From IMG/VR virus record IMGVR_UViG_3300024273_002067: a stretch of 64,000 bases of DNA. One strand, given 5' to 3'. The notes beneath the pieces are model-generated. The model did not search any database. It was not told the DNA's origin and worked only from the letters and a program-made list of their open reading frames with translations. This document shows, in pieces, positions 9,490-60,208 of the stretch (its first letter is position 1; each line of letters starts with the position of its first letter). The position numbers were made by a program, and so were the translations under genes. The DNA comes from a virus (taxonomy: Duplodnaviria > Heunggongvirae > Uroviricota > Caudoviricetes).

Positions 9490-11157
9490 ATGAAATCAGC
9501 AGAATTCCTAACGAAAACAACATCAGAAAAAGAAATTTTCACGTATGAAGACTTTACACATGAGCAAGTAATGATGTATGAAGCAACTAAAGACTTTATT
9601 AACAAAACTATAATTCCTAATATTGAATCTATAGAAAAACAAGAAGGCACAATAGTTTCTGACATATTGAAACAGGCGGGCGAATTAGGACTTTTGGGAG
9701 TCACCGTACCCGAATCTCTAGGAGGCTTAAGCATGGACTTTAACACATCTATGTTAATAGCTGATATAATTGGAATATCTGGTTCATTTGGAACAACTTA
9801 TGGTGCGCACACTGGAATAGGTACTTTGCCTATTTTATACTATGGAAATAAAGTTCAGAAAGAGAAGTACATACCTAAATTAGCTACTGGTGAACTTGTT
9901 GGATGTTATTGCCTAACCGAACCTGGTGCTGGCAGTGATGCTAACGCTGGTAAAACTAGTGCAAAAAGAAGCAAGGACAAAAAAAGTTTTATAATAAATG
10001 GTCAAAAAATATGGATTAGCAATGGTGGATTTGCTGATATTATGATTGTTTTTGCAAAAATAGGAAAAGACAAAAACCACAGTGCATTTATTGTTGAATC
10101 AAAAACAAAAGGTATCACAATGGGGCCAGAAGAAGTTAAGTTAGGAATTAAAGGCTCTTCTACAAGACAAATATTTTATGAAAATGTAGAGGTTCCTTCT
10201 GAAAATTTACTAGGAAAAAGAGGTCAAGGATTTGAAATAGCTTTAAACATATTAAACATTGGCAGAATTAAGTTATGTGCATCTGCAATAGGAGGTGCCA
10301 AACAATTAATAACACAGTCAAAAGAATATGCAGAAGACAGGAAGCAGTTTGGAACTGAAATAAGAAACTTTGGCGCTATAAGAGAAAAGGTAGCTTTAAT
10401 GATGTCTAAGACGTTTGTTTCTGAAAGTTTAATGTATAGAGCTGGGCAGGACATTGAGTCAAGAGGAGCTTCGGTAGGCACAGTTAAAGCTACAAGTGAA
10501 TATGCTATAGAGTGTGCAATTGCAAAGGTGCATGGTTCTGAAGTTTTAGACTATGTTGTTGATGAGTCTTTGCAAATTCATGGTGGAATGGGTTATTCTG
10601 CTGAATTCCCAATAGAAAGGGCTTATAGAGACTCTAGAATAGCAAGAATATATGAAGGTACCAATGAAATAAATAGACTTATGTTAGTTGGACAATTTCT
10701 TAAAAAAATAAAAAACAAAGAGTTGTCAATCAACAAAAATGTTATTAAAGCCTATTCAAAAATAATAACCCCCTCACAACTAACTTGTTGCAGTGGCATT
10801 TCTCTAATTGAAAATCATAAAATTTTACTTGGATTCTTAGTTGCTAAAGTGTATAAGAAGTTTGGTAAAAACTTATTTAATCATCAACAGGTTGTTATGT
10901 GGATTGCGGATATTATAATAGAAATATATGCAAATGAAAGCGGTTTTTTAAGGTCTAAAAAGACTGGTTACTTGAGCCAAAAAGAAATGTCTAAACTATA
11001 CTTGTATGAATCAAATCAGCTTATAAATAAAGTTGCCACAAAAATAGTTGACTCATCGACCAGTGGTGTTGGTAGGTTTTTCGCTAAAAAAATAGTAAAT
11101 AAATTAACTAACCAGTCACACGAAAATAGAGAAGATTTAACAATTAAAATGTATTAA
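9490..11157 (+). CDS. Acyl-CoA dehydrogenase with an ~170-aa C-terminal extension
   Basis: CLTEPGAGSDA motif and FAD/ACAD fold regions. Confidence 0.8.
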   Translation: MKSAEFLTKTTSEKEIFTYEDFTHEQVMMYEATKDFINKTIIPNIESIEKQEGTIVSDILKQAGELGLLGVTVPESLGGLSMDFNTSMLIADIIGISGSFGTTYGAHTGIGTLPILYYGNKVQKEKYIPKLATGELVGCYCLTEPGAGSDANAGKTSAKRSKDKKSFIINGQKIWISNGGFADIMIVFAKIGKDKNHSAFIVESKTKGITMGPEEVKLGIKGSSTRQIFYENVEVPSENLLGKRGQGFEIALNILNIGRIKLCASAIGGAKQLITQSKEYAEDRKQFGTEIRNFGAIREKVALMMSKTFVSESLMYRAGQDIESRGASVGTVKATSEYAIECAIAKVHGSEVLDYVVDESLQIHGGMGYSAEFPIERAYRDSRIARIYEGTNEINRLMLVGQFLKKIKNKELSINKNVIKAYSKIITPSQLTCCSGISLIENHKILLGFLVAKVYKKFGKNLFNHQQVVMWIADIIIEIYANESGFLRSKKTGYLSQKEMSKLYLYESNQLINKVATKIVDSSTSGVGRFFAKKIVNKLTNQSHENREDLTIKMY

Positions 11158-15811: not shown

Positions 15812-16906
15812 TTAGTTTTTTAAATTATAATAAGTCCAACTAAACTGTTCCATATCTATTCCACTTAACATTTCGCTTACCACTACAGCTGTGCCATAAT
15901 TTTCTTCAACATTTACATTTCCAAATAAAGAAATATAACCGACAGCATCCGCTCTAAAATGTGCTTGTGATAAACCATCGTAAATAACTTCAGAATTAAC
16001 AATTGTAAATGGAGCATTCCACTGGCCTTCGCCACCATCTATTTCAAAAGCGTGGTCAGTAGACAGACTAGGCACTATAAGAACATTGTCAATGTCTCCA
16101 CTGTAAGCCTGGTCAATGTCTATGCAGTCGTCACCAACATTCCATACTAATAAATTAGAACAATTGACATTTCCACCAAACCATTCTATGCCATCGTCTT
16201 GATTGGCAACCACTTCAATGTTGTTAATAGTTGTTAAATTTCCGACTCCAGCCAAAGTTAGTCCATTAATTTCATTACCCTCACCAATATTTGAGCCTCC
16301 ATGTCTTATCGAAACATAAGATAGAATACCGCTATTATCAAAATCATCAGCTCCGCCATATAAACCATTTTGGTCTGATGCAGGAATTCCTTCAATTTGT
16401 ATCGATTGCATATTCCCAGGTGCTGATATGGGTGCTTTTCCACATATTATAATACCACCCCACAATCCATAAATATTTTCATTTAAAGAATTTCCTATCA
16501 CCTGGCCCACCTGAATATCGTCTGCTATTGATGTGAAAATTATTGGTTGTTCTGGTGTTCCTTGAGCGTTAATCTTACCCCCTCTTGCCACAATTAAACA
16601 AGATGCATTAGCTCCCGTTCCTGCTTCTGCCTTTATAATTGTACCCGGCTCTATTGTTAGAGTGACTCCATCCACAACACTAACCCTACTTTGGATAATC
16701 CATATTTTGTCTGAAGTTAATGTTGTATTTGTTGTAATATTGCCAGTTATAGTATGTTCTGGAAATGTGTGTTCACAAGAGCCATCATTTTGTTCTGCAT
16801 GTTGATTGTAGTTGTTAGCAGTAGGGTCAGTGCATCCTTTTTTCTTACAAGAATATAGTGTTAACGAAGCTATAAATGCTAAAATTAATATTGTTGTTTT
16901 TTTCAT
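15812..16906 (-). CDS. Lipoprotein, right-handed beta-helix (pectate-lyase-like) repeat protein
   Basis: Lipobox LYSC; Flavobacteria-type CTDPTANNYN...DGSCEH motif; repetitive G/N-rich beta-helix. Confidence 0.55.
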   Translation of the reverse strand: MKKTTILILAFIASLTLYSCKKKGCTDPTANNYNQHAEQNDGSCEHTFPEHTITGNITTNTTLTSDKIWIIQSRVSVVDGVTLTIEPGTIIKAEAGTGANASCLIVARGGKINAQGTPEQPIIFTSIADDIQVGQVIGNSLNENIYGLWGGIIICGKAPISAPGNMQSIQIEGIPASDQNGLYGGADDFDNSGILSYVSIRHGGSNIGEGNEINGLTLAGVGNLTTINNIEVVANQDDGIEWFGGNVNCSNLLVWNVGDDCIDIDQAYSGDIDNVLIVPSLSTDHAFEIDGGEGQWNAPFTIVNSEVIYDGLSQAHFRADAVGYISLFGNVNVEENYGTAVVVSEMLSGIDMEQFSWTYYNLKN

Positions 16907-17069: not shown

Positions 17070-17369
17070 ATGAGTTTAAAAAAAATGAAAAAGGAGTATC
17101 GTGATACTTCAAAAAAAGAGATTGCAAAAGGTGTTGCTGAAAATTTTACATACGGCTTTTTGGGCTCGACATTAATCGTATTTATTTCTAGTGGAATAGA
17201 CATAGCAGTTCTGTTTAGCTATATGGTATACTACTTCTTTTTGGGAAGAGTTGTAAATAGACCCAAATACGTAACATCAATTGGTAAGTTTATAGTATTT
17301 CCAATACCAACATCAATAGGAGCATTTATTGGGTATAAATTAGCTAATTTTATTTCAGTATTCTTTTAA
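17070..17369 (+). CDS. membrane protein
   Basis: 2-3 TM segments. Confidence 0.4.
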   Translation: MSLKKMKKEYRDTSKKEIAKGVAENFTYGFLGSTLIVFISSGIDIAVLFSYMVYYFFLGRVVNRPKYVTSIGKFIVFPIPTSIGAFIGYKLANFISVFF

Positions 17370-17379
17370 TTATATATTT

Positions 17380-17946
17380 ATGGGTATGAATGAAATTTTA
17401 AAAAAAATTTACGAATCTTCAGCATACACTAAAGAAGTTAAGAACGAAACTGTTTTTAATGAAAATACAGTAGGAAGCCCAGTATACGGAGAAGTAACTC
17501 AAAGTGGCACTGAAGCTATAATAGATAAGTTTTCAGAATACTTTAATGTAGACACTGTATTTTATGACTTGGGCTCTGGATTAGGTAAAATGGTGGCTCA
17601 TGTTGGATTGACTGTGGGAGCAAAATCAATAGGTATAGAATACAGTAAAGAAAGACATGGTGGAGCAAGTGTGATGAAGGATAACTACATCCCAGATTGT
17701 GATAATGTATCATTCAAAAATGGAAATGTATTAGACTTTGACCTTTCCGATGCTACAGTTATATATATGGATAATACAGTTTTTCCAAAACACATAGATT
17801 TAGAAATATACAAAAAATTAAGTAGTGGCTGTCTAGTGTTGTATAAAAAGAAGTTAATTGGCATAGAAGAAGAACAGAACTTTCAAAGAGACTTAGTGGA
17901 CAGAACATATCATCAAAGAGGTTTATATTGGATGACTAAATCTTAA
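17380..17946 (+). CDS. Class I SAM-dependent methyltransferase, DOT1-like motif set
   Basis: FYDLGSGLGKMV...GIE and VIYMDNTVF resemble the DOT1 DLGSGVG and VIFVNNFAF motifs. Confidence 0.5.
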   Translation: MGMNEILKKIYESSAYTKEVKNETVFNENTVGSPVYGEVTQSGTEAIIDKFSEYFNVDTVFYDLGSGLGKMVAHVGLTVGAKSIGIEYSKERHGGASVMKDNYIPDCDNVSFKNGNVLDFDLSDATVIYMDNTVFPKHIDLEIYKKLSSGCLVLYKKKLIGIEEEQNFQRDLVDRTYHQRGLYWMTKS

Positions 17947-17984
17947 AATTTGTAATATTTTCTATTAAACTACGTTATTAACGT

Positions 17985-18323
17985 ATGATTTATGAAAAAG
18001 AAATAAAAGGAGAAATTATAAATATTGAAGTTGGAATGGGCGCAACTAAAAGTGTTGGAAGTGATTCATATCCATATACTGTAATTAAAGTTCAGAGTAA
18101 TGGAAGTGAAATACATGCACAACGTGATATATCAACTCCAACTGAAGATAGCGAATATTACGGCAATCAATCTTACACCTATGTCCCAGACCCAGAATCA
18201 GAAATTGAAATTTTTACTCTAAGAAAAAATGGATATTTTGTAAAAAAAGGAAAACCGTTAAACTATTATTGGGATAGCATATGTCTTGGTACAAGAAGAT
18301 GTTATAGAGACCCCTCTTTTTAA
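17985..18323 (+). CDS. hypothetical protein
   Basis: ORF. Confidence 0.4.
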   Translation: MIYEKEIKGEIINIEVGMGATKSVGSDSYPYTVIKVQSNGSEIHAQRDISTPTEDSEYYGNQSYTYVPDPESEIEIFTLRKNGYFVKKGKPLNYYWDSICLGTRRCYRDPSF

Positions 18324-18474
18324 AAAAACAAGTATTAATACTTATAAGTATCGTAACTTATACTTATAGGGAACTATAGGTGCACATGTATTTTAAACAT
18401 ATACACCACCCAAATTTCATGGTTTTACTAAGGTTGTAACTATATATTGCTGTAACCAAAAAAAAACAAAAAAC

Positions 18475-20091
18475 ATGAAAAAGATTATTATCAACTTATC
18501 ACTATTAGCATTAGGACTAATAATGTCAAACACCTTAACTGCTCAAGCGTCATCTGTATGGGCTACTGTTGAAAGTTTAGAAGCACTAAAACAAGACAAA
18601 AACTTTCAAGACTTACAACAAGAATTAAACTTAAAGTACGAACAAGCTTTATCATCTTCAAAAAAAGAACATTTACAAAAAGTTTATGAATTTAAATGTG
18701 AATGTGATGAAGTAGACCTTTATACATCAATGCACAAAATTAATTCAGTTAACAAAATTGAATATGGACCTAAATACGAAAGCTTATCAGAACCAAATGA
18801 CTATAATTCATTAAGCACAAACTCAAGTTGGCATCTAGATTTAATTAATGCTCAATTAGCTTGGCAATTTACACATGGAAATATTGACATTGCTATATCA
18901 GACCAAAACTACTTTGTAGAACATGAAGAGCTAATTGGTGCAGTATCTTACCATGACACCACCAACACCTCTTCTCAGACTCACGGTACTGCAGTAGCTA
19001 TAACAGCTGCAGGAAACACAAATAATGGCGTAGGTCTTTCTAGCATTGGATACAACTCAACTCTTTCGCTATATAGAATGAACTATGGAGAAGTTTTATC
19101 TGCTTCATATAATGGAGCTAAAGTAATAAACTTAAGCTGGACTAGTGGATGTGCCTATAACCAATATTTACAAGATGCAATAAATGAAGTTTACGAAAAT
19201 GGAACATTTATAGTGGCCGCAGCTGGTAATGGCTCTACATGTGGAGGCTCAGAAGCATTAGTTTATCCCGCTGCTTATGACAACGTATTTGCTGTGTCTA
19301 GCGTTGGAGAAAATGATTCTCACGAAAACCCAAACGGAGCCACTCATCAACACAACAGTTCTGTTGACATAATGGCTCCTGGGTATGATGTTCCGATAAG
19401 TGCCGCTCCAGGATGGTACCTATATGGTAGTGGAACTTCTTATGCGTCTCCAATGGTTGCTGGAACTGTGGGGCTTATGATTTCAGTTAATCCAGACATT
19501 ACAAATGAAGAAATAGAAACAATATTATCTCAAACAGCTTGGAACATTGATGAAGCAAACCCTAGTTACATTGGAAAAATGGGCTCTGGTAGGCTAGATG
19601 CAGGATATGCTGTTGCTCAAGTTCAAAGAAATTTAGATATTGCTGCTGCAAATGATAATAATGATGATGGGAATAATGGTCACGGAAATGATGAAGATGG
19701 TGTAGATGACACCAACCCAGGAAATGGGCACGGAAATTCAAACCCAAGTTATGAACATGCAAAACCATCAAAAGGAGACAATGTACATGTAGGCGATGTC
19801 GTAGATAATCCAAATGGAGGTTCGAACAATGTGCACAAATCATTTTCCGATGCTAGTATCAATAGGATAGTTGTATTTCCAAACCCTTCTCATGGAGACT
19901 TTAGAATAAAGTGGAAAGGAATGGATATGGAGCTTTTATATATTTACAATTCCAACTTTCAGATAGTACAAAGACATAGAGTGGAAATGTATAACCAAAT
20001 TAGCCTAACGCTATTACAGCCTGGTAATTACGTGGCAATGTTAGTGGATAGCAATGGAACTAGATATAGAAAGAGAATAATAATTTTTTAA
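18475..20091 (+). CDS. Secreted subtilisin-like (S8) serine peptidase with a T9SS C-terminal sorting domain
   Basis: Signal peptide; GTSYASPMVAG Ser motif and HGT His motif; C-terminal FPNPS... beta-sandwich tail. Confidence 0.75.
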   Translation: MKKIIINLSLLALGLIMSNTLTAQASSVWATVESLEALKQDKNFQDLQQELNLKYEQALSSSKKEHLQKVYEFKCECDEVDLYTSMHKINSVNKIEYGPKYESLSEPNDYNSLSTNSSWHLDLINAQLAWQFTHGNIDIAISDQNYFVEHEELIGAVSYHDTTNTSSQTHGTAVAITAAGNTNNGVGLSSIGYNSTLSLYRMNYGEVLSASYNGAKVINLSWTSGCAYNQYLQDAINEVYENGTFIVAAAGNGSTCGGSEALVYPAAYDNVFAVSSVGENDSHENPNGATHQHNSSVDIMAPGYDVPISAAPGWYLYGSGTSYASPMVAGTVGLMISVNPDITNEEIETILSQTAWNIDEANPSYIGKMGSGRLDAGYAVAQVQRNLDIAAANDNNDDGNNGHGNDEDGVDDTNPGNGHGNSNPSYEHAKPSKGDNVHVGDVVDNPNGGSNNVHKSFSDASINRIVVFPNPSHGDFRIKWKGMDMELLYIYNSNFQIVQRHRVEMYNQISLTLLQPGNYVAMLVDSNGTRYRKRIIIF

Positions 20092-20183
20092 TATGAAAAA
20101 AAACTTAAGACTTTTTATTAGTATTTTCTTGACTAATTTTATAATATTGCAATTAATTAAAACTATAATAACATAGAAACATA

Positions 20184-20212
20184 AAAACCTCACTATTTAA
20201 GTGAGGTTTTTA
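20184..20212 (+). terminator. Rho-independent terminator (AAAAACCTCACT-loop-AGTGAGGTTTTT)
   Basis: 12-bp perfect stem and T-run. Confidence 0.65.
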
Positions 20213-20231
20213 TGTTTATTAATAAAAATTA

Positions 20232-20444
20232 ATGAAATTATTTAATAAAAAAATGAAAAGTGAAATTGACGTTGACATTGACATTGATAGATTAAAGGCT
20301 ATAAGTGAAAATATAAACAAGTGTGTAAATCGTTATTTTAGAATTAAAATAAAGAAGAACATAAGAACTTTCACTGGTATAAATGTGGACAGATTTAATT
20401 TGCTTAATATTTATAAACAAAAAAATGACAAAATCAAAAATTAA
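20232..20444 (+). CDS. hypothetical protein
   Basis: ORF. Confidence 0.35.
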   Translation: MKLFNKKMKSEIDVDIDIDRLKAISENINKCVNRYFRIKIKKNIRTFTGINVDRFNLLNIYKQKNDKIKN

Positions 20445-20634
20445 AAAAATTTCAAAACATGCATTTCACATATTGCCAATAGTTGGTTTAGGTATATGTG
20501 GGATACTTTATCCAGGATGGATAAAAAACGGATATCTATATGAATGGTACCCAACTATTGCGGCTGGGATTGCTGTCTATGGAGGGTTTATAGCTAACTT
20601 AGTCTGGTACATAAAACAAAGGAAACACCTTTAA
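20425..20634 (+). CDS. small membrane protein (start re-called)
   Basis: 2 TM segments. Confidence 0.35.
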   Translation: MTKSKIKKISKHAFHILPIVGLGICGILYPGWIKNGYLYEWYPTIAAGIAVYGGFIANLVWYIKQRKHL

Positions 20635-20637
20635 AAA

Positions 20638-21069
20638 ATGAATACTATTATACTATTTTCAATATATATATTATTTATAATTATATCTGGTGCATCTGAG
20701 GCTGTGATGGATAAAATTCAATTTCATTATAACAAATCTATCTTTTTACAATTTAAAAAACAGCTATTCTGGGACCCTAGCATGTCTTGGAAGAACAAAT
20801 ATAAAAATGGAGACCCTAAGCAAGGTTGTAAATTCATTTTCTCCACTACATACTTTGTTTTTGCCACTGATGCATGGCACTTATTTAAATTCCTAAAAAA
20901 CACATTCATATTTGCGTCAATTGGAATAGCAATGTATGCACAAACTTGTGCTTTAAAGGATTTTGATTTATCTAAAATTTTAACTATATTGCTATTTGTA
21001 ATATTAGGAAGAGCCTTTTACGGCTTATCTTTTAATTTATGTTTTGATAAAATATTAAAATCAGATTGA
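20638..21069 (+). CDS. membrane protein
   Basis: Multi-TM ORF. Confidence 0.4.
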   Translation: MNTIILFSIYILFIIISGASEAVMDKIQFHYNKSIFLQFKKQLFWDPSMSWKNKYKNGDPKQGCKFIFSTTYFVFATDAWHLFKFLKNTFIFASIGIAMYAQTCALKDFDLSKILTILLFVILGRAFYGLSFNLCFDKILKSD

Positions 21070-21458
21070 AACTATTTGTTAGTAATAAAATTGAAGTTAG
21101 AGATTCCAGCCTATCAGGAAGGGGTGTTTTTGCCAATAAAGATATAAAGGCGGGGGAAATATTAGAAGAATGTCATCATGTTATTTTAGAAAACACATTT
21201 AAAACTCAAGACCCCATGTTACAAACGTACATTTTCTCTTGGCCTAAAGGCTCTCACGGAGGGAAAAACTCATCTTCTGTAGTTCTGGGTATGGGCTCTA
21301 TATTTAACCACAGTGATAATAATAATGCTGATTGGGTCACAGATGAAATTAGGAACTTGTATTCATTTTATGCAATAAAAGACATAAAAAAAGATGAAGA
21401 GATATTTACTAATTATGGCATAATGTACAAAGATGTTGTGGGTACTAATAACAAATAA
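21066..21458 (+). CDS. SET-domain protein (lysine methyltransferase fold), minimal 130 aa
   Basis: GRGVFA, IFNHS.NNNA, EEIFTNYG motifs. Confidence 0.7.
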   Translation: MKLFVSNKIEVRDSSLSGRGVFANKDIKAGEILEECHHVILENTFKTQDPMLQTYIFSWPKGSHGGKNSSSVVLGMGSIFNHSDNNNADWVTDEIRNLYSFYAIKDIKKDEEIFTNYGIMYKDVVGTNNK

Positions 21459-21469
21459 AAAAACAAACA

Positions 21470-21706
21470 ATGAGTGATAGAGCAAAAAAAAGGTACGCAA
21501 ATAAGCAATTGAAAAAGAATTTAGAAAAGCAAAGCTTAAGTATAGGCGAAACAAGCATTTTTAACAAAAGTTTTATGATAGATTCAAAAAAACTTGATTC
21601 TATAGAGAAAATACAAAAGGCATTTGAACTAATTAAAATTAAGTTCAACCCACCAAATGAAGAGGCTTACAATGAATATTCAGATATACTTTCCGATTAT
21701 GAATGA
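21470..21706 (+). CDS. hypothetical protein
   Basis: ORF. Confidence 0.4.
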   Translation: MSDRAKKRYANKQLKKNLEKQSLSIGETSIFNKSFMIDSKKLDSIEKIQKAFELIKIKFNPPNEEAYNEYSDILSDYE

Positions 21707-21768
21707 GGAATAAAATGTAATATTTTATAAAAAAATTCGTTATAATAAGGAATTAAAAAAATTAAAAC

Positions 21769-21969
21769 ATGTATTGGATTTGGAGAAAAATTATTAGAAG
21801 ACCAGTCTCATCAATTTCTTTGTTGAGGAACACAGAGCTTTTTTTGGAAATAGAAAGAAAGTCAGATAGACAATTGCTAAACAATCTTAATAAGAGATAT
21901 CAAAAAAATAAATCAATAATAGATTTATATGAACAACAACCGAGACACATAATAGACGAACCAGGTTAA
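21769..21969 (+). CDS. hypothetical protein
   Basis: ORF. Confidence 0.35.
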   Translation: MYWIWRKIIRRPVSSISLLRNTELFLEIERKSDRQLLNNLNKRYQKNKSIIDLYEQQPRHIIDEPG

Positions 21970-21979
21970 TATATTAGTA

Positions 21980-22537
21980 ATGAAATTTGTTGAAAACGTA
22001 ATACATAACTCACTAACAATTAAAGGTATAACTGTTGAGCTTTTTATATTAAAACAAAATAAAATTGTTACTCAAAAAGTTTTTGATGACTATGAGATGT
22101 TTGAAGATACAGATGGTAAAATATACTATGTTGAGCACAATATGATTGGTTTAGAATTAAATCTATTTAGACCCATCTTAATTTCTAAGTCTGAAATGCC
22201 ACTGAAAGGAGACATGATTTTATTTACTAACATTTTTGAAACTGGTGAATGTTCAATTGAAAATGCAGAAAAAAACTTATCAAACAAAGATGTTTATAAT
22301 TTTCACACCAACAAAAAAGAGATTTATAAAATAATTGTTAACTATAATGAATTTGAATTTAAAAGTCATTTAGAAAACATAAAAAAAGGCTCTTGGGTTC
22401 ATGGACAACAATTTTTTGTTGAATGCGATTCTGGTGTTTACGACAAAAATAGATTAAAAGAAGTGGATTATAATTTATATGACTCTTCTTTAAGTATATT
22501 TAAAATCAAAGAACCTATCGTAATACATATGTTTTAA
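21980..22537 (+). CDS. hypothetical protein
   Basis: ORF. Confidence 0.4.
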   Translation: MKFVENVIHNSLTIKGITVELFILKQNKIVTQKVFDDYEMFEDTDGKIYYVEHNMIGLELNLFRPILISKSEMPLKGDMILFTNIFETGECSIENAEKNLSNKDVYNFHTNKKEIYKIIVNYNEFEFKSHLENIKKGSWVHGQQFFVECDSGVYDKNRLKEVDYNLYDSSLSIFKIKEPIVIHMF

Positions 22538-22580: not shown

Positions 22581-23645
22581 CTATCTGTTATATATTTTTT
22601 CAGAAGAGCCATCTTGATACATTATGACTACTATACCCCTATAACTTCCATCAACCTCTTGCCCTGACAGGTTAAACCTTTTATATATTGACTTTTTTTG
22701 ATAGTTTCTTACAACAGATATTGGTCCAAAAGTTTCACTTTTACCATCATTATCATACTGAACAAGTCTGTAATAAGTTATTTCATTAAATCTATCGTCA
22801 GGATAATGATAATCTATTTTAGAAACACTATGTCCAGCAGCGCCTTGCACATTTATTACTGTCCAAATCTCGCCATCAGTTGAGCTTTCTACCATAAAGT
22901 AATCAGAGTTATACTCTGATTCTGTAGTCCAATTTATAAAATTATATTCATCAATAGGCTCAGCTTCAAAAGAAGACAGTTCAACTGGTAGAGATGTTGG
23001 AGACACTTCATAAAGTTCAAAATTATCCATCCACCACTCTTCCCCTGCTCTAGTGACTCTTGCGTAAACATCTATTGCAATCTGAGTAGGCCCCGCAGGA
23101 ACATAAAGTTCAATGTAAGAATAGCCATCTCCAGTACCATTTCTATCACCACCAGAGGAAGGTTGAAAAGTTGTTAAATAGCCTGTGGATATTTTTCCAG
23201 CAGTAGCTGTGGATGAATAGTCCCATGTCGCATTATTAAATCCTTTAACTCTTATTTCACTAACAAAACCTCCGCCATTCTTGCTTAGTTGAACATCTAT
23301 GTAATCACCACCATCTAAACCCGCAGTAGACGCTGTAGGGCTAGTTATTGTTTGAGCAGCTAATCGCATTCTAAATATATGGTCTTTACCGTTATCAACA
23401 GTTATGTTTGGGAGTGAATACCAATCTTCCTCCCTTGCATTGTTACCACCTCCATATATTACTGCACTAGAAGATGGAGATACTGATATATTATTAAAAT
23501 AACCTGTAGTAGCAGCTGGCGTCCACCATGCACCACTCCAGTCGAATGATTCAATATAGTCAGAAGCTATTAGAGTTTCCGTGTTTTGAGATTTTAAGGT
23601 GCTTACAAAAGTTAAAAATAGAGTAATTAAGATAAAGTTTTTCAT
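22581..23645 (-). CDS. Secreted beta-rich protein with a T9SS C-terminal sorting domain
   Basis: Signal peptide; C-terminal ...YYRLVQYDNDGKSETFGPISV... motif. Confidence 0.6.
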   Translation of the reverse strand: MKNFILITLFLTFVSTLKSQNTETLIASDYIESFDWSGAWWTPAATTGYFNNISVSPSSSAVIYGGGNNAREEDWYSLPNITVDNGKDHIFRMRLAAQTITSPTASTAGLDGGDYIDVQLSKNGGGFVSEIRVKGFNNATWDYSSTATAGKISTGYLTTFQPSSGGDRNGTGDGYSYIELYVPAGPTQIAIDVYARVTRAGEEWWMDNFELYEVSPTSLPVELSSFEAEPIDEYNFINWTTESEYNSDYFMVESSTDGEIWTVINVQGAAGHSVSKIDYHYPDDRFNEITYYRLVQYDNDGKSETFGPISVVRNYQKKSIYKRFNLSGQEVDGSYRGIVVIMYQDGSSEKIYNR

Positions 23646-31576: not shown

Positions 31577-33427
31577 ATGGATTTAAAAAAAATATCAGAC
31601 GAAATAAAAGAAATTGTATCCAATAGGCAAAAGGAACTAAACCTCTCCTTTGTTGAAGACACTCATACTTATTTTATGAAAAACTTACAGGGGGAAATGG
31701 TGAGCAACTACCCTTCTGTGTCTACTGTATTAAAAAGTTTTTATACACCTTTTGACGCAGAGTCAACAAAAAGCTTTAAAAATTGTGGCGGAGACCCAGA
31801 AAAAGAAAAGTCGCTTCTGAAGGAGTGGAGTGATTCTGGAACTTACGCATCTCACATGGGCAGTAGAGTTCACTTTATCTTAGAAGACTATTTGGTTGAA
31901 TTATATGGAGCCTACAAAGAAGTTAGGTTACCAATCTTCGAGTGTGATGATGAACAAACTGAAAACGGAGATTCTATGATTGTTGCTGGCAAGTCTTTTT
32001 TAGACTTAATGCACTCAAGGGGAGCTGTTTTATTAGATACTGAAATGGTTTTAGGTAGTCCCGAATTGGGGTACACTGGTCAACCTGATAAAGTTTGGCT
32101 CATAGTTGGAAAAGATGGTAATCCTGGTATTTTAGTAACAGATTGGAAAGGTTTACCACTAGATACACCAATACTAACAGATAGCGGTTGGAAAAGTATG
32201 GGTACCCTAAATAAATCTGATAAGGTATATGATAAAGATGGTGACTTAGTTAATATCATGAATATATCACAAGTTAAAAATAAGAAGTGTCTTAAGATTA
32301 AATTTGATAATAATGAAGAGGTTGTTTCTGATTTTGAACATAGATGGTTAGTTTATACTGAGAGTAGTGGTGTTAAAAAAGAAAGAGTCATGACAACTCA
32401 AGAGATTAAAGATTATAATGATGGTTTAATTAAAAGAGATTCATATAAAATATTAAAGATTTCAAACCCAAAACCATTAAATAACCCTAAAACTGAATTA
32501 CCAATAGACCCTTATGTCTTAGGTATGTGGTTAGGTGATGGTCATAGTATTGATGCTAAGATAACTCAAGCTAATGAAGTTGTTTGGTCTGAAATTAAGA
32601 AAAGAGGTTATAAGGTTGGAAATGATGTATCACAAGGTGGTGCTGGTAAAGCAACAACTAGAACTATATTTGACTTACAAGGTAGGTTAAGAAAAACATC
32701 TTTATTAAGCAATAAACATATACCAGAAATTTACTTATCCAGTTCATATGAACAAAGGTTAGATTTACTTAGGGGGTTAATGGATAGTGACGGTACATAT
32801 AATAAAACTAGAAATAGTTTTGTAATGGAAACAACTAGAGAAAGTCAAGCTGATTATACTGCTGAAATAATATCTTCTTTAGGCATTAAACCTACTAAGA
32901 GTTCATTTTATAAGAAATTTAACGGTAAAATTATTAAATGCTACAGAACATCGTTCGTAACTAGTGAATTTAACCCATTCTTATCTAGAAATCAAGACCT
33001 AGTGTTAAACCTAAAGAAAGATAGAAGAACTTATAGAACTATAGTATCGGTCAAAGAGGTGGAATCAGTACCAACTAAGTGTATTGAAGTGGATAGTCCG
33101 TCTAGTACATTCTTATGTGGTAAATCGTTATTAGTAACACACAACACAAATAAGCCAAAAAACTTCGTTTCACAATTCTACACCAAACCTATGTTAACTC
33201 CCTTTACAGAGTATGACGACACATCTCTGGGTCACTATTATGTACAACTACCACTTTATGCAAAACTACTCTTAGATATGCTAAAGGGCTCTAAATATGA
33301 AAACATACCACTTCTTGGCGGTATAGTAGTATTGCTAAAAAAAGATGCAACATTTGAAGAGTATAGAATACCTAAGGAAGTTCTAACCATTGTAGACAAA
33401 ATGAATGTTTCACTATACTTAAAGTAA
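31577..33427 (+). CDS. PD-(D/E)XK (YqaJ/RecB/Cas4-like) nuclease interrupted by an intein
   Basis: Exteins carry GQPD, TDWK and QLPLY motifs; the insert 32150..33145 has two LAGLIDADG-like motifs and a terminal HN|T. Confidence 0.6.
   Translation: MDLKKISDEIKEIVSNRQKELNLSFVEDTHTYFMKNLQGEMVSNYPSVSTVLKSFYTPFDAESTKSFKNCGGDPEKEKSLLKEWSDSGTYASHMGSRVHFILEDYLVELYGAYKEVRLPIFECDDEQTENGDSMIVAGKSFLDLMHSRGAVLLDTEMVLGSPELGYTGQPDKVWLIVGKDGNPGILVTDWKGLPLDTPILTDSGWKSMGTLNKSDKVYDKDGDLVNIMNISQVKNKKCLKIKFDNNEEVVSDFEHRWLVYTESSGVKKERVMTTQEIKDYNDGLIKRDSYKILKISNPKPLNNPKTELPIDPYVLGMWLGDGHSIDAKITQANEVVWSEIKKRGYKVGNDVSQGGAGKATTRTIFDLQGRLRKTSLLSNKHIPEIYLSSSYEQRLDLLRGLMDSDGTYNKTRNSFVMETTRESQADYTAEIISSLGIKPTKSSFYKKFNGKIIKCYRTSFVTSEFNPFLSRNQDLVLNLKKDRRTYRTIVSVKEVESVPTKCIEVDSPSSTFLCGKSLLVTHNTNKPKNFVSQFYTKPMLTPFTEYDDTSLGHYYVQLPLYAKLLLDMLKGSKYENIPLLGGIVVLLKKDATFEEYRIPKEVLTIVDKMNVSLYLK
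32150..33145 (+). mobile_element. Intein with LAGLIDADG homing-endonuclease domain (~332 aa)
   Basis: N-terminal block A-like LPLDTPILTDSG, LGMWLGDGHS and LLRGLMDSDGT dodecapeptides, C-terminal LLVTHN followed by Thr. Confidence 0.6.
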
Positions 33428-38074: not shown

Positions 38075-38968
38075 ATGATTTTAAATAAAAACAAACAAAA
38101 AGGATTAAAGAGACTTGTATTTATAAATGTTGCTTTTTTTCTTATAGCAAATGTTATAATGTCTGCTTCTGGTAGCTATGATTTAATGTCAGACTTTGCC
38201 TTAAGCTCTAGCTTTATGCATGTCATATTAAAGCCGTGGACTTTACTTACTAGCATGTTTTTACATATAGACTTTTTTCACTTACTCTTTAACATGTTAT
38301 ACCTATTTATATTTGGACAAATTTTATCCGAAAGATTAGGCAGCCAATCTGTAGTTACAGTATATCTTTTGGGTGGAATTGTTGGGGCAATATTTTATTT
38401 ATTATTTTATAACTTAATATCTATTGACCCCAGATATCTGGCCATGGGGGCTTCTGGTGGCGTTATGGCAGTTATGTCTGCTGCAACAACAATTAATCCA
38501 AATAAAGGAGTTTCAATAATGTTTTTGGGTAAAATAAAGATAAAATGGATTTTTATATTTTTATTTATTATGACCAGTGTATATAATATAAACATAAATA
38601 CTGGTGGCAAAATTGACCACATGGGAGGTGCTATGTTTGGCTTTATTTACATAACTCTAATAAAAAACAGAAACCTATACCTGGGGAAGTGGTTGGATAA
38701 TATTTGTGTTTATTTTTCAGATAAATTTTCAATAAATAAAACAACATTTAAAATTAAAAAAGATGAATCAAATATCAAAACTGGATTTAGGGGAGCTCAA
38801 GATAGGAGAGACAAAAAAACAAGAGAAGTGGCGGTTGATAATTTTTTAGAAAAAACAGAAATAAACGAAGAAATGGATAAGTTGCTTGCAAGGGTTAAAA
38901 AAGTTGGGTTTGATAACTTAAGCGAATCAGACAGGCAAAGACTAGTATATTTAAGTAAAAAAATGTAA
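38075..38968 (+). CDS. Rhomboid-family intramembrane serine protease
   Basis: GASGGVMAV (Ser) and DHMGGAMFG (His) in TM helices. Confidence 0.7.
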   Translation: MILNKNKQKGLKRLVFINVAFFLIANVIMSASGSYDLMSDFALSSSFMHVILKPWTLLTSMFLHIDFFHLLFNMLYLFIFGQILSERLGSQSVVTVYLLGGIVGAIFYLLFYNLISIDPRYLAMGASGGVMAVMSAATTINPNKGVSIMFLGKIKIKWIFIFLFIMTSVYNININTGGKIDHMGGAMFGFIYITLIKNRNLYLGKWLDNICVYFSDKFSINKTTFKIKKDESNIKTGFRGAQDRRDKKTREVAVDNFLEKTEINEEMDKLLARVKKVGFDNLSESDRQRLVYLSKKM

Positions 38969-38969
38969 T

Positions 38970-39284
38970 ATGAGCAATAAAGAGAGAATAGAAATTGAAC
39001 CTGGTTTTTTTGTTGGTGAAACTGTAATATTGTTAGAAGAGACTGAATTTACAAAAGTTCACAAGATAAAAATTGGCACTGTGGGCGTAGTATCAAAAGA
39101 CGATAACTTAGAAACGCTGAAGGGGTGGAAAGCTATAAATGTAGAAGAAGGCTTCAAGAGCGAAATAGATAAAATGACTCCAGAAAAAATAGATGAGCTA
39201 TATAATCATTTATCTAGGATTGGAAAGATTAAAAATGCTGACAAGCTAGATGATTTAGCAAAAATTAAAACAAATAAACAATAA
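38970..39284 (+). CDS. hypothetical protein
   Basis: ORF. Confidence 0.4.
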   Translation: MSNKERIEIEPGFFVGETVILLEETEFTKVHKIKIGTVGVVSKDDNLETLKGWKAINVEEGFKSEIDKMTPEKIDELYNHLSRIGKIKNADKLDDLAKIKTNKQ

Positions 39285-39847
39285 TGAAAGAAACACTGCC
39301 TTTGGCTAAATGTAGAACTCTGTTCTTTGGGAAAGACGTTGATATGGAATCTATAGAATCTATATCTGAAAATATTATAAAGATAAATGAAGATGATAGT
39401 TTTTTAGAAAAGCTTTATCCTGTATATGGATTGAAATATGAGCGTAAACCTATAAAAATAATGATTGACAGTTATGGCGGATACGTTTACCAGTGTATGG
39501 GATTGATAGGTATTATGGAAAGTTCAAAAACAGAAATACACACTTATGCCACTGGGGCTGCGATGTCTTGTGGTTTCATAATGTTAATATGTGGACATAA
39601 AAGATTTGCATACAAACACGCTACACCTATGTATCATCAAGTTTCGACTGGCTTCTGGGGTAAAACTCAAGATATGGAAGAGAGTTATAAGGAAACAAAA
39701 AGACTTCAGGGCAAATTTGAATCATTAACTTTAGAGAAAACAAAAATATCTAAATCAAAATTAAAAGAAATTTTAAAGACAAAACAGGATTGGTATATGG
39801 ATGCGGAAGAGGCTGTGTCCTTTGGTGTTGTGGATAAAATAATATAG
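39284..39847 (+). CDS. ClpP-family (S14) serine peptidase, short divergent paralogue
   Basis: GAAMSCG (Ser) and YHQVSTG (His) motifs. Confidence 0.65.
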   Translation: MKETLPLAKCRTLFFGKDVDMESIESISENIIKINEDDSFLEKLYPVYGLKYERKPIKIMIDSYGGYVYQCMGLIGIMESSKTEIHTYATGAAMSCGFIMLICGHKRFAYKHATPMYHQVSTGFWGKTQDMEESYKETKRLQGKFESLTLEKTKISKSKLKEILKTKQDWYMDAEEAVSFGVVDKII

Positions 39848-40648: not shown

Positions 40649-41209
40649 ATGATTAAAGAAATAGTAAAATATGGTGATGATATACTTAGAATTGTTTGTG
40701 AGAAATACGCTTCTGGTGCTATTGACATCAATGAATTAATTTCAAACCTAAAAGACACACTTAACTCAGTTAAAAATGGAGCAGGATTAGCTTCTCCACA
40801 AATAGGCATTAATAATAGAGTTTTTGTAACCAGAAACTATAGAGACGACAAGCCAGATGAAATGCTTACATTCATAAATCCAGAAATAATAACAAAGTCT
40901 AAAGAACAAGTTAAGGTTCCTGATGGCTGCTTAAGCATACCCAATATACACTCTGAAACAGAAAGACATTCTTACATAACAGTATCTTACCTGGATGAGG
41001 GGCTAAATAGAGTGGAAGAAGAGTTAGAGGGATTTCAATCTGTTGTGTTTCAACATGAACTAGACCACTTAAATGGCGTTTTGTTTTTAGACTTGTTAAG
41101 TCAGGAAGAAAAAGAAAAGATTGAAGAGTTTATTTTGAGACAGAAAAGTGAGCCTAACATATTTTATATTGAAGGAAAAATAATTGAAATGAGTTTAAAA
41201 AATGGCTAA
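40649..41209 (+). CDS. def: Peptide deformylase
   Basis: GAGLASPQIG, GCLSIP, HELDHLNG motifs. Confidence 0.85.
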   Translation: MIKEIVKYGDDILRIVCEKYASGAIDINELISNLKDTLNSVKNGAGLASPQIGINNRVFVTRNYRDDKPDEMLTFINPEIITKSKEQVKVPDGCLSIPNIHSETERHSYITVSYLDEGLNRVEEELEGFQSVVFQHELDHLNGVLFLDLLSQEEKEKIEEFILRQKSEPNIFYIEGKIIEMSLKNG

Positions 41210-50063: not shown

Positions 50064-52889
50064 ATGCATAATAATAAAAAGCTTTATGAAGAAGTTTCAA
50101 GAATGATTGAACTATTAGGAGGAGAGCAAAAAGATTCAAAAACACTTAAAGAGTCTTTTGACAATAAAGTGATATCTAAAAGAAATTTAACAGAATCTAT
50201 AGATGACATAGACTTCACTAACTTATTTGATGATGACTTAAACGATGAGGAATTAGACAAAAAAATAGATAGCAAATTTTCGTCACTTTCAGCCAATGAT
50301 GACATTTCTTTACTGGGCAAGTTAGCTCTGGTTACGGGTTCAATTAACAAATTACAAGCTGCGATGTTTGATTTGCAAAAAAAGGATTTGTTGACTCTAA
50401 AAGACTTAAGTTCTGAAAGAATTAATAGAGATGACGATAAAGGTGCTGTAGTTCATAAAGGAAGAAAAATTTTATACCCTGGGCAATCTGTTGCAGATTT
50501 TAGAGACATGATGAACAAGGGAAGGCTTATGTTAAAGGTTGGAAATGAATCAGAAAATCTAGACGGAGACAATGTAGGCAAGGTATTTAAGTGGCTAGGA
50601 GGAACTCAAGGAACAAAAACTTTACATAATATTGGATTTGGAAGCGATGGTAAATTGAGTAAAAAAGGAAATGCTGAACTAAACTTTCTAGCAAGAATTC
50701 TTTCTAATCAGCCAAAAGATGATTCAGAACAGAAAATAATAGAAACATTTGGAGATGCTGCAAAAAATAATGCACTAAAAATATTACTTGACCTATATAA
50801 AGTTGCAGGTACAAACATTCTACTTCCACTCCTAAACATGGAGCCAACACCAGAAAATTTAGATTCTATTTCAGATGGAGTTACTAAGGCGTTGAATAAC
50901 TTAGCTGGCATTAGTGGAGATAAGCTAGAGGCTAAAGAAACTAGCTGGGACTCTTCGAGAAATGTTGGGTCTTGGATTTTACAAGTTGCAAAGAATTATG
51001 CTAAAAATGCAATTAAAAAAAATACTGAATACTTACCAAATATAAATTCTGCTAATCAATTTTTAGAAGATATGCTAAGTAGGGAGGGAGTCATTTCTTT
51101 TTTATCAAGAAAAGAACCTTCACATGACAACTATGCTGACTCAGTAGAAAAAGTGGGTGAGAAATATTTATACAAATATTCAAAAATTGATGATGCTATT
51201 GATGACTTAAGAAATTCAACTAAAGTTAAAAATCATCATTTAATGCCATATAATTTAGAAATATCTAAATACAAAGATTTATTTTCACTAGAAAGAAAGG
51301 CGCCTATATCAATGAGTCCTGAAATGGAAAAAGAAATAGGACAAAAAGTTGCTGATGAAGAAAGTTTACTAAACTTAGATAGTGGTGATGAAATGAAAAT
51401 AAGAAACATATTGTCTAAAGTTGTTGATTTTATGACTTTAGATTCTAAAAAATATGGAATCAAACAAGCTACTCACGACCCTAGTTATTTATCTATTTCT
51501 GACAAAAAGGAAATACAATCAGGTAGAGATGAGTCTTTAATTAGAAAGAGAAAAGAGCTAGCAAAAGAAAATGCTATAAACTTCATGTATAACTTTTTAT
51601 TGTCTGCAGTTGGTAACACTAAGTATGGTACAGATATAGGCATTTCTGGTAAGGTGAGTCCAGAAATTATGTCTGACTGGATAGAGTCTCAAAGAAAGAC
51701 AATGTTGACCAAGCTTATAAAAATAGAAAAAGCAAACAATCCCGATATAGATAGTGAGAAAATAAAGGAAAGAGCTGAAAAGCTAGGACTTTTAACTAAA
51801 GGAGGTAAATTTGCTCAATCATTTAAAGGTGGTTTAAAGGATTACTTTTCTAACAACAAAGAAGAATTGTCTAAAATAATGAAACTAGTTTCTTCAACAT
51901 CTCCTGAAGGATACGAGGTAGAGTCTGATATCGAAACTATATTCGAACAGAAAGTTAGGGCTAGAATTCAAGAAATAATTAGAGAGTCATTTGTCATAAA
52001 AGAAGAAGAGTACGAAGACAATAATTTAGAAGAAGATGAGTTAGATAAATTGATAAATGCATTTGGAGACAGGTTTTCTAAAGCAACATCTTACAATAGA
52101 GCTGGGAATGGTGGATTAGACAAAGAAATTAAAAGCATTGTAGATGGAAATCTATCAAAGTGGCACTTTGAAAATAGTGAACAAGGTCAACATAACTACA
52201 TCAGCTCAGTACTAGCTTCTATGTATAACACATTAAGCAGTTCACAACAAAGAAATGTCTTAAAACACATTTTTCTTTCTTTCTTCCCAAGAGGTGAGGA
52301 AAGTAGAATAGTTACACAACTAATAAACAAACAAGTACCAGGCTCTTTAATGAGCAATAGACCAGAAATGTGGGATGTTATTATATCTTCTGAAAATGAT
52401 GGAACTCTATTGTTACAAAAAGCCTTAGAAACATATGAGCCTAAAGGCTCATTATTTAAGTACTTATTGAGAAGAATTCTTAACGAAGCTAGAAATAAGT
52501 CCAGAAAAGAAGATGCCTCATTACATAAAGGTGAAAGGACTTATCACAGTACTTCTGTAGATTCTATTGACGCACCATTAGGAAGCGATGAAGACGGGAG
52601 TAGAGCATATGAACTAGAGGCAGAAGATTCTTCTGATGATAAAATAGGTGAATTAAGAGACAGAATTTCAAACTATCTATATAAAGCAGAAGATGCTGGA
52701 TTACTTTCTGGTAGTGAGTTAAATTTATTGAAATCAATCAGTCAATTTGGTTCCGAAGTAATGGATAACGATAAAATTAACTATGAACTATTGGGAACAA
52801 GAATAGGAAAAAGCGCTTCTAATGTTGGAACTATGATGTCCAACATAGTAAAGAAGATGAAGCAAGGTAGAGAAAAGGGAATTGTATAA
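50064..52889 (+). CDS. 941-aa protein with N-terminal LYEEVSRMIELLGG motif and C-terminal sigma-region-4-like HTH
   Basis: N-terminal motif shared with 36236 and 45573; C-terminal YELLGTRIGKSASNVGTMMSNIVKKMK. Confidence 0.45.
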   Translation: MHNNKKLYEEVSRMIELLGGEQKDSKTLKESFDNKVISKRNLTESIDDIDFTNLFDDDLNDEELDKKIDSKFSSLSANDDISLLGKLALVTGSINKLQAAMFDLQKKDLLTLKDLSSERINRDDDKGAVVHKGRKILYPGQSVADFRDMMNKGRLMLKVGNESENLDGDNVGKVFKWLGGTQGTKTLHNIGFGSDGKLSKKGNAELNFLARILSNQPKDDSEQKIIETFGDAAKNNALKILLDLYKVAGTNILLPLLNMEPTPENLDSISDGVTKALNNLAGISGDKLEAKETSWDSSRNVGSWILQVAKNYAKNAIKKNTEYLPNINSANQFLEDMLSREGVISFLSRKEPSHDNYADSVEKVGEKYLYKYSKIDDAIDDLRNSTKVKNHHLMPYNLEISKYKDLFSLERKAPISMSPEMEKEIGQKVADEESLLNLDSGDEMKIRNILSKVVDFMTLDSKKYGIKQATHDPSYLSISDKKEIQSGRDESLIRKRKELAKENAINFMYNFLLSAVGNTKYGTDIGISGKVSPEIMSDWIESQRKTMLTKLIKIEKANNPDIDSEKIKERAEKLGLLTKGGKFAQSFKGGLKDYFSNNKEELSKIMKLVSSTSPEGYEVESDIETIFEQKVRARIQEIIRESFVIKEEEYEDNNLEEDELDKLINAFGDRFSKATSYNRAGNGGLDKEIKSIVDGNLSKWHFENSEQGQHNYISSVLASMYNTLSSSQQRNVLKHIFLSFFPRGEESRIVTQLINKQVPGSLMSNRPEMWDVIISSENDGTLLLQKALETYEPKGSLFKYLLRRILNEARNKSRKEDASLHKGERTYHSTSVDSIDAPLGSDEDGSRAYELEAEDSSDDKIGELRDRISNYLYKAEDAGLLSGSELNLLKSISQFGSEVMDNDKINYELLGTRIGKSASNVGTMMSNIVKKMKQGREKGIV

Positions 52890-56178: not shown

Positions 56179-56236
56179 ATGTTTATGTTTTGTTATAAAT
56201 GTAAATATTTCCAAACTTCATAAGTAATTATACTAA

Positions 56237-56422
56237 TTAATCTTCATCATTTAGATTTTGTATATATTTAGCCTTATCAATTTCCGACCTTCTTTTTACT
56301 GATTTTTTTACAAACTCTTTTCTCTCTCTAATATCATTAAGCATCTTAGTTTTGAAAACTTTATTTTTTAAATTTTTCAAAGCCTGATTTATATTTCCTT
56401 TAGCGACTTTTATTTTAAGCAT
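56237..56422 (-). CDS. rpsU: Ribosomal protein bS21
   Basis: MLKIKV...ALKN.K.K....ML.DIRERKEFVKKSVKRR aligns with bacterial S21, closest to the Bacteroidetes type. Confidence 0.8.
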   Translation of the reverse strand: MLKIKVAKGNINQALKNLKNKVFKTKMLNDIRERKEFVKKSVKRRSEIDKAKYIQNLNDED

Positions 56423-58922: not shown

Positions 58923-58962
58923 TTAATAAATGTAGCACATAAATAAAAAAAATAAATAGATA

Positions 58963-59406: not shown

Positions 59407-59408
59407 AT

Positions 59409-59434: not shown

Positions 59435-59454
59435 TATATTGGTTATATTTAACT

Positions 59455-60207: not shown

Positions 60208-60208
60208 A

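Follow-up and report, generated by a model that had tools for sequence, protein, structure and literature searches.

SET and DOT1 are the two enzyme families that write lysine methylation on eukaryotic histones, and very little is known of what they do in prokaryotes without histones. vSET (A612L) of Paramecium bursaria chlorella virus 1, a eukaryote-infecting virus, is a stand-alone SET core of about 120 residues without pre-SET and post-SET regions, which trimethylates lysine 27 of histone H3 (H3K27) and shuts down host transcription (PMC3089700). Prokaryotes also encode SET lysine methyltransferases. Go1-SET of Methanosarcina mazei methylates the endogenous protein MC1-alpha, a precedent for a non-histone nucleoid target (PMC3980110), and Chlamydia NUE/cpnSET, Legionella RomA/LegAS4 and Bacillus anthracis BaSET likewise belong to this group. 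Here, a SET-domain open reading frame (ORF) of 130 residues is compared with these systems. It lies in a stretch of 64,000 nucleotides, hereafter the window, from the IMG/VR virus record IMGVR_UViG_3300024273_002067, the source of which is most likely a jumbo or huge tailed phage of marine Bacteroidota. The ORF likely encodes an active lysine methyltransferase, predicted as such from sequence and fold and probably dimeric, whose substrate would be a basic protein of the host or the phage; the gene would belong to a large tailed phage of Bacteroidota.

The protein resembles vSET in being a virus-encoded SET core that stands alone, and the two share the motifs GxGVFA, IFNHS..NA and EEI..SY/NYG at 33% identity. 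However, the probable host is a histone-free bacterium, and the SET-I loop is 7 residues longer than that of vSET and contains FSWPK. The bacterial SET effectors are secreted proteins that target the histones of eukaryotes, and they are larger, have several domains or bear a signal, whereas the window protein is phage-borne and carries no signal; the NCBIfam LegAS4 model gives it a trivial 15.9 bits. Set7 of S. pombe (5h6z) and Plasmodium PFL0690c (4rz0) also have small SET cores, with template modelling (TM) scores of 0.77-0.80 to the window protein, but they are eukaryotic nuclear histone methyltransferases with C-terminal extensions that the window protein lacks. The same architecture is found in the SET proteins A0A6J5L8Y2, GR11A_00061 and that of LR756501, which are 117-136 residues long, pass the Pfam SET threshold and show 30-61% identity. 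The phages with such SET proteins have contractile tails or jumbo genomes, and the genes often sit in modules for replication or nucleotide metabolism. In contrast to the window's lineage, the other phage lineages have no DOT1-like gene near SET, and their neighbourhoods vary (PhoH, ClpB, T4-like replication, tail).

The SET-domain protein and its relatives

The 130-residue protein matches the Pfam SET family (PF00856) with 64.2 bits (cut-off 22.4, E 1.7e-17) and covers profile positions 1-105 of 105, which by sequence comparison is far beyond chance. The first-pass annotation of this DNA had quoted the motifs GRGVFA, IFNHS.NNNA and EIFTNYG and had read the protein as a minimal SET domain of vSET size. 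All three motifs are located in the ORF (Table 1), and the full-length profile match, a sequence search of solved structures and a fold search support that reading. The GxG motif G18-R19-G20 and the NHS motif N81-H82-S83 are both intact, and Y117 aligns with Y105, the catalytic tyrosine of vSET. The best sequence matches among PDB chains are S. pombe Set7 (5h6z, E 2e-13) and vSET (1n3j, E 4e-12). Because the protein has a single cysteine (C36) and no second domain, the pre-SET and post-SET zinc clusters are absent.

In an alignment of 32 relatives, down to 33% identity, residues G20, F22, E34, G75, N81, E112 and Y117 are invariant, and G18, V21, A23, H82 and W90 are at least 90% conserved. The aromatic residues Y55, F57 and Y117, which align with the lysine channel of vSET, are retained; the Phe/Tyr-switch position, from which mono-, di- or tri-methylation would be predicted, is not reliably alignable among minimal SET proteins. 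Within the longer SET-I loop, F57-S-W-P-K61 is conserved among the closer relatives. Because SET-I usually lines the substrate groove, the FSWPK loop may be the specificity element of the family.

The start codon of the ORF is TTG. With an in-frame stop at 21048-21050 and no ATG between it and the motifs, TTG is the sole standard start (ATG, GTG or TTG) available. It shares bases with the TGA stop of the upstream ORF at 20638-21069, and this TTGA overlap suggests translational coupling. The TTG start is kept in marine relatives on TARA scaffolds (L164-L166), which are 93.6% identical to the ORF in nucleotide sequence. Comparison with these scaffolds gives 12 synonymous and 13 non-synonymous differences and a ratio of non-synonymous to synonymous substitution rates (dN/dS) of 0.25, by which measure the gene is under purifying selection.

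An AlphaFold2 model built from the same 32-sequence alignment is nearly all-beta, with a mean predicted local distance difference test (pLDDT) score of 87.1 and a predicted TM score (pTM) of 0.82. The first-pass annotation had named a structure prediction without a SET fold as one result that would refute the assignment; a SET fold with vSET as the top match was recovered. In a Foldseek search of the PDB, vSET (3kma) ranks first (E 2.4e-9, TM 0.85 on the target, 33% identity), followed by Plasmodium PFL0690c, S. pombe Set7 and then MLL1, G9a, SETD8 and SUV420H1; all of the top 50 matches are SET methyltransferases. Among predicted viral structures, the best match is A0A6J5L8Y2, labelled 'SET domain containing protein', from an uncultured Caudovirales phage (TM 0.84, 38% identity), with further matches to SET proteins of Megaviridae, of chlorovirus type and of other Caudovirales. 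In the sequence and the predicted model, the features needed for lysine methylation dependent on S-adenosylmethionine (AdoMet) are all present and conserved.

vSET is a dimer, and natural tandem SET-SET fusions exist among the relatives (P0212, P0217, P0219 and P0226). By analogy with these, the 130-residue protein probably works as a homodimer. In P0212, the first SET copy is degenerate and has lost the NHS motif, which is intact in the second. P0217 (607 residues) has the order PhyH-SET-SET, with an N-terminal PhyH dioxygenase domain, and would thus pair a fold of the hydroxylase/demethylase type with methyltransferases.

Stand-alone SET proteins are common in tailed-phage contigs rather than a rarity, and their entries in UniProt and at the Joint Genome Institute (JGI) already bear the label 'SET domain containing protein'. 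The 63 database relatives of the ORF, 107-157 residues long, were all pre-annotated with PF00856, and a HMMER search of 1.84 billion cluster representatives returned 2,840 proteins with E <= 1e-3 as the limit, of which 517 reach E <= 1e-10; the majority have 110-170 residues. Relatives occupy at least 369 loci in IMG/VR, and the best 80 of these fall into at least four unrelated neighbourhoods. At about 21 loci, SET is accompanied by genes for tail sheath, tail tube, head-tail adaptor, DNA polymerase and helicase. About 20 loci place it in a T4-like replication module that also holds UvsX, SbcC/D and a GMP-reductase-like gene, and at 9 a ClpB-like ATPase gene (49-53% identity) lies within 10 kb. 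Within the same distance of 10 kb, some IMG/VR relatives have tail sheath, tail tube, UvsX, SbcD or DNA polymerase genes. Directly downstream of PhoH, SET forms the closest group (54-61% identity), which includes a 254-kb contig. The closest relatives (48-61% identity) are all on viral contigs. A SET homologue is also encoded by the 735-kb huge phage LR756501 and by the cultured myovirus Vibrio phage vB_VcorM_GR11A, where GR11A_00061, annotated 'hypothetical protein', scores 52 bits against Pfam SET and sits between helicase, ligase and dihydrofolate reductase genes.

Bacterial and archaeal genomes also carry the family. A scan of GTDB genome contigs with the single protein found no close SET relative, but an alignment-based scan of the same contigs found 91 loci with at most 47% identity, in Fictibacillus and other Bacillaceae, Saprospiraceae, Patescibacteria, Bdellovibrionota and Asgard archaea. 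The window SET is therefore one member of a large, already-annotated family of viral and prokaryotic stand-alone SET proteins, and its locus is neither structurally nor genomically anomalous. Its value is that of a tractable test case, with hundreds of phage homologues for comparison, and not of a discovery in itself.

Table 1 Positions of the SET gene, its motifs and other features of the window
Feature	Position	Strand	Remarks
SET-domain ORF	21066..21458	+	130 aa; predicted protein lysine N-methyltransferase, stand-alone
GRGVFA, residues 18-23	21117..21134	+	GxG AdoMet-binding motif; aligns with vSET GYGVFA
IFNHSDNNNA, residues 79-88	21300..21329	+	NHS motif, which in SET domains forms half of the pseudoknot and AdoMet pocket; aligns with vSET IFNHSKDPNA
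EEIFTNYG, residues 111-118	21396..21419	+	C-terminal SET motif with catalytic tyrosine Y117
Upstream 143-aa hydrophobic ORFan	20638..21069	+	TGA stop overlaps the SET start
Downstream 78-aa ORFan	21470..21706	+	Lys/Arg-rich N-terminus MSDRAKKRYANKQLKKNLEKQ; 11-nt gap after SET
Run of seven small co-directional ORFs, SET fourth	20232..22537	+	Gaps from -62 (first two overlap) to +62 nt
Perfect palindromic hairpin	20177..20217	.	18-bp stem, 5-nt loop; between the S8 peptidase gene and the small-gene cluster
DOT1/aKMT-like class I AdoMet methyltransferase	17380..17946	+	188 aa; Pfam DOT1 45.3 bits, cut-off 23
Secreted subtilisin-like S8 peptidase with type A C-terminal sorting domain of the type IX secretion system	18475..20091	+	Pfam Peptidase_S8; TIGR04183 24.8 bits, cut-off 23
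Ribosomal protein bS21	56237..56422	-	61 aa; Pfam Ribosomal_S21 43.4 bits, cut-off 27
616-aa ORF, exonuclease-like N-terminus, Hom_end/LAGLIDADG region	31577-33427	+	'Terminase large subunit' PHROG matches

The element and its probable host

The window has a GC content of about 30% throughout and holds about 100 ORFs, mostly co-directional and tightly packed. Genes for nucleotide metabolism (thymidylate synthase, thymidine kinase, a GMP-reductase/IMPDH-like protein and NUDIX) occur together with those for replication and DNA processing, namely single-stranded DNA-binding protein (SSB), RNase H, an RNase T-type exonuclease, a DnaB/KaiC-like ATPase, topoisomerase IA and a cytosine-C5 DNA methylase. 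Mobile or selfish elements are represented by an intein or homing endonuclease ORF, T5orf172/MUG113 and PcfJ; chaperones and proteases by DnaJ, a ClpB-like ATPase, two ClpP-like proteases and a rhomboid protein. NADAR, peptide deformylase, glucosaminidase, acyl-CoA dehydrogenase, GH16, Band-7 and a dTDP-sugar epimerase are also encoded.

The host is taken to belong to the Bacteroidota because secreted proteins of the window bear sorting domains of the type IX secretion system (T9SS). Such a domain ends the S8 peptidase, and a second secreted protein carries a weaker one; with at least two of these C-terminal domains, the element would export proteins through the T9SS of its host. Predicted secreted proteins lie at 18475-20091 (+), 22581-23645 (-), 55204-56214 (-) and 15812-16906 (-) and comprise the S8 peptidase, a G8-domain protein, a beta-helix protein and a 354-residue ORFan, at least two of them with T9SS domains. 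The window also encodes ribosomal protein bS21, a gene that large phages of Bacteroidetes are known to carry (PMC9723584, PMC7162821). The adjoining 319-residue ORFan (56436-57395) has its sole phage relative in the 462-kb LR756500.

Several ORFs of the window have their relatives in phage genomes only, and for some ORFans these genomes are of 300-735 kb. The 706-residue protein at 25086-27206 matches phrog_33734 (E 5.5e-72) and has relatives in the Xanthomonas jumbo phages XacN1 and Xoo-sp13, Rhodococcus phage Weasels2, a 485-kb uncultured phage and a 310-kb IMG/VR contig. On a 152-kb IMG/VR contig (L184), counterparts of the window's GH16, DUF2452 and two small ORFs occur together with two paralogues of the DOT1-like kind. 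A search with the GH16 protein, aimed at extending the contig leftwards, gave short contigs only. A SET relative of 99% identity (P0001) lies on a 141.6-kb JGI contig, and the SET locus is also present in TARA Oceans and other marine assemblies; a megablast of window positions 10000-34000 against 50,697 phage records gave no match. The earlier description of the locus as part of a Bacteroidota phage-like element remains the best reading of this context, on the indirect evidence of the T9SS domain, bS21 and the jumbo- and huge-phage relatives.

Proposed substrate and competing explanations

The SET protein would be an AdoMet-dependent protein lysine N-methyltransferase of the minimal stand-alone type with vSET architecture, expressed from a gene that would be co-transcribed with its six small neighbours. 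The enzyme would mono- to tri-methylate one or more lysines on a basic protein inside the infected bacterium, and methylation would alter the interactions of that protein during host takeover. Action inside the infected bacterium is proposed because the ORF has neither a signal peptide nor a T9SS tail. A basic substrate is proposed because the median isoelectric point of the SET family is 5.3 and because the one endogenous substrate known for a prokaryotic SET enzyme, MC1-alpha of M. mazei, is a chromatin protein (PMC3980110). The candidate class would be basic nucleic-acid-binding proteins. Within it, a host HU-type nucleoid protein or a phage DNA-binding protein may tentatively be put forward as the target, and a ribosomal or translation protein is a more doubtful candidate. 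The targets put forward with the first-pass annotation (HU, ribosomal proteins and EF-Tu) are likewise guesses. The identity of the substrate would show how protein lysine methylation is used in phage infection, and it would also bear on the proposed prokaryotic origin of these enzyme families (PMC3980110).

Several results weigh against an active methyltransferase with such a substrate in a tailed phage. Capsid, portal, terminase and tail genes were not recognised by Pfam or PHROGs among the roughly 100 ORFs, although the window is 64 kb of a contig of at least 141 kb, so that their absence from it is not decisive. No gene for HU, a histone-fold protein or another recognisable nucleoid protein was detected in the 64-kb window. 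All-against-all clustering of 3,138 ORFs from 169 SET loci produced no cross-lineage family except SET itself, and full-text literature searches found no functional study of phage SET or phage DOT1 proteins. Because no neighbour is conserved across the at least four SET-carrying phage lineages, gene context gives no clue to the substrate; GMP-reductase-like and ClpB-like genes recur near SET within single lineages only.

The missing virion genes also suit an alternative in which the DNA is chromosomal, or part of a mobile element that is not viral, in a member of the Bacteroidota with low GC. SET would then be a resident enzyme acting on the cell's own proteins, as it seems to be in Fictibacillus or Saprospiraceae. 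DnaJ, the ClpB-like and two ClpP-like proteins, topoisomerase IA, SSB, peptide deformylase, bS21, ThyA and thymidine kinase are housekeeping-type genes, and the 91 cellular SET loci include a conserved chromosomal neighbourhood in Fictibacillus. However, these housekeeping genes are all of kinds reported in huge phages (PMC7162821, PMC9723584). The 64 kb contain no tRNA or rRNA gene, most of the ORFs are ORFans, and genes of phage or mobile type are present (T5orf172/MUG113, the intein or homing endonuclease, NADAR, PcfJ and the phrog_33734 protein). For several ORFs, the nearest relatives come from huge phages in GenBank and from viral contigs in IMG/VR (152-310 kb), and the closest SET proteins are all on viral contigs, in contrast to the bacterial ones with their lower identity. 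A chromosomal or non-viral origin is accordingly considered unlikely, and a large tailed phage of Bacteroidota remains the preferred source.

The conserved FSWPK insert, absent from vSET, and the lack of histones in a bacterial host leave some room for a SET-fold enzyme with a non-lysine target, either a histidine methyltransferase like SETD3, which acts on His73 of actin (PMC11462206), or an enzyme modifying a non-protein amine. This is rated as less likely again, since the closest solved relatives in both sequence and fold are all lysine methyltransferases and the catalytic tyrosine and the lysine-channel aromatics Y55, F57 and Y117 are retained. Lysine methylation is thus the preferred activity.

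Degenerate SET copies do occur in the family, as in the first copy of P0212, which would fit a catalytically dead fold kept as a binding or scaffold module. In the window ORF, however, the cofactor and catalytic motifs are intact and conserved in the family, and the dN/dS ratio points to purifying selection, so that loss of activity is judged very improbable and an active enzyme is preferred.

A nucleocytoplasmic large DNA virus of eukaryotes as the source is hardly credible, and so is an effector directed at the histones of a eukaryote in the manner of vSET, Chlamydia NUE or Legionella RomA. Marine Mimiviridae-like viruses do commonly have SET, DOT1, inteins, MUG113, DnaJ, topoisomerase IA and a low GC content; Megaviridae and chlorovirus SET proteins are among the fold matches, and some distant DOT1-like matches are giant-virus metagenome-assembled genomes. 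This origin was nevertheless rejected on the conserved TTG start overlapping the upstream stop, the tight packing and overlap of genes, the T9SS sorting domains, bS21, peptide deformylase and bacterial SSB of the window, the lack of a signal or secretion tail on SET, and the tailed-phage relatives, the nearest of which have SET next to tail sheath, tail tube and UvsX genes. Because the TTG/stop overlap, the T9SS tails, bS21 and the tailed-phage relatives make the context prokaryotic, H3K27 is ruled out as the substrate; the substrate of vSET would not be shared by the window SET, the chemistry of which is predicted from its sequence to be vSET-like.

A broader proposal, that large phages carry, in one genome, a chromatin-writer toolkit of SET-type and DOT1-type enzymes that place methyl marks on bacterial proteins during infection, is speculative and rather unlikely. 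If it were true, one version would have the nucleoid (HU-type) or the ribosome reprogrammed by a phage with its own bS21 and peptide deformylase; another would have lysines of phage proteins capped against lysine-directed host defences such as ubiquitin-like conjugation. Such a toolkit would add a new layer to phage-host conflict and would provide a prokaryotic setting for enzymes later used on eukaryotic histones.

Neighbouring genes and the DOT1-like protein

SET is the fourth of seven small ORFs in a run whose far end meets a minus-strand gene head-to-head. Because the gaps are short and the sole strong hairpin is just upstream, the run is a probable single transcription unit. A hairpin scan found no strong terminator inside it, and the palindromic hairpin that precedes it is likely, from its symmetry and position, a bidirectional terminator and the boundary of the unit. 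A sigma-70 promoter scan returned fewer sites than in shuffled sequence; the consensus is not valid for Bacteroidota, and the result was not used. The upstream 143-residue ORFan has no Pfam or NCBIfam match. No family match was found for the downstream 78-residue ORFan either; with its Lys/Arg-rich N-terminus, it may be a partner or substrate of SET. Homologues of the small ORFs flanking SET were found only within the window's own lineage, so that these neighbours define no conserved system.

The first-pass annotation had also placed a second, DOT1-like lysine-methyltransferase fold 3 kb upstream of SET, and this assignment holds: the protein at 17380..17946 scores above the Pfam DOT1 cut-off, and Dot1p and DOT1L are among its top fold matches. 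Its AlphaFold model has a pLDDT of 95.2, and the top 42 fold matches are Dot1p, DOT1L, aKMT, bacterial DOT1L, T. brucei DOT1A and a single 5bxy. The best sequence match in the PDB is this Salinibacter protein 5bxy, deposited as 'RNA methyltransferase', and there is weak sequence similarity to 'bacterial DOT1L' (9ne1), T. brucei DOT1A and Sulfolobus aKMT. Like Dot1p, DOT1L, aKMT and 9ne1, the protein has a class I Rossmann core with DOT1-specific N-terminal elements; unlike Dot1p and DOT1L, it has no nucleosome-binding regions in its 188 residues. It is thus a second putative protein lysine methyltransferase, DOT1-like at the level of the predicted fold. The family comprises 169 database relatives, largely from marine metagenomes, and 66 IMG/VR loci carry relatives; some distant matches are giant-virus genomes, and no match was found among the 50,697 GenBank phage records.

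The DOT1-like gene sits in a separate upstream unit (17070-20091). A linked SET/DOT1 system was considered and rejected: none of 163 other SET loci has a DOT1-like gene within 10 kb of SET, and none of the 66 viral DOT1-like loci has a SET gene within 10 kb. The proximity of the two genes (within 10 kb) is, as far as these loci go, confined to the window's lineage. The idea that SET and DOT1-like clusters occur on common genomes, prompted by nearly equal lengths of their longest contigs, was not borne out either; the readable contigs, the longest not among them, differ between the two. The DOT1-like enzyme would be an independently acquired lysine-methyltransferase candidate and not an obligate partner of SET.

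Some related contigs bear on the surroundings of the two genes. A 310-kb contig (L170, IMG/VR UViG_3300017917_001524) carries homologues of the 17070-17369 and 25086-27206 proteins about 10 kb apart, as in the window, and no SET or DOT1-like gene is detectable between these homologues of the 99-residue and 706-residue proteins. Because this contig keeps the flanking genes without the methyltransferases, the comparison suggests that both sit in a variable region. Two tandem DOT1-like paralogues with 48-49% identity to the window protein are found at L184:9436-10567 (IMG/VR UViG_3300030090_007211, 152 kb). In a third contig of 159.5 kb (L178, GCA_001625785.1, LULV01000001.1), the DOT1-like P0164, labelled 'tRNA G46 methylase TrmB' by JGI, lies directly downstream of ClpP and Cpn10. 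This contig is filed in a genome assembly but looks viral, with a family B DNA polymerase, RecA/RadA, ribonucleotide reductase and the 7-deazaguanine genes GCHY-1, PTPS, radical SAM and TGT.

The 616-residue ORF at 31577-33427 is probably an intein-interrupted replication protein. Its terminase PHROG matches are misleading and probably reflect the intein/homing-endonuclease region, which the matched stretches cover. A full-length DnaJ gene at 57807-58922 (-) belongs to a chaperone/protease cluster (57807-62293, -), in which a gene for a ClpP-like protease (59455-60303, -) overlaps that for a 694-residue ClpB/ClpA-like double-AAA ATPase (60209-62293, -). A second ClpP-like gene at 39284-39847 (+) lies next to the peptide deformylase gene (40649-41209). 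The 941-residue ORFan at 50064-52889 (+) has no phage or Pfam match and a weak C-terminus resembling sigma-70/extracytoplasmic function factors (28 bits, below the cut-off), and it could be a phage sigma-like factor. Auxiliary genes unusual for a phage are a complete acyl-CoA dehydrogenase gene (9490-11157, +), a rhomboid protease gene (38075-38968, +) and GH16 (1610-2344, +).

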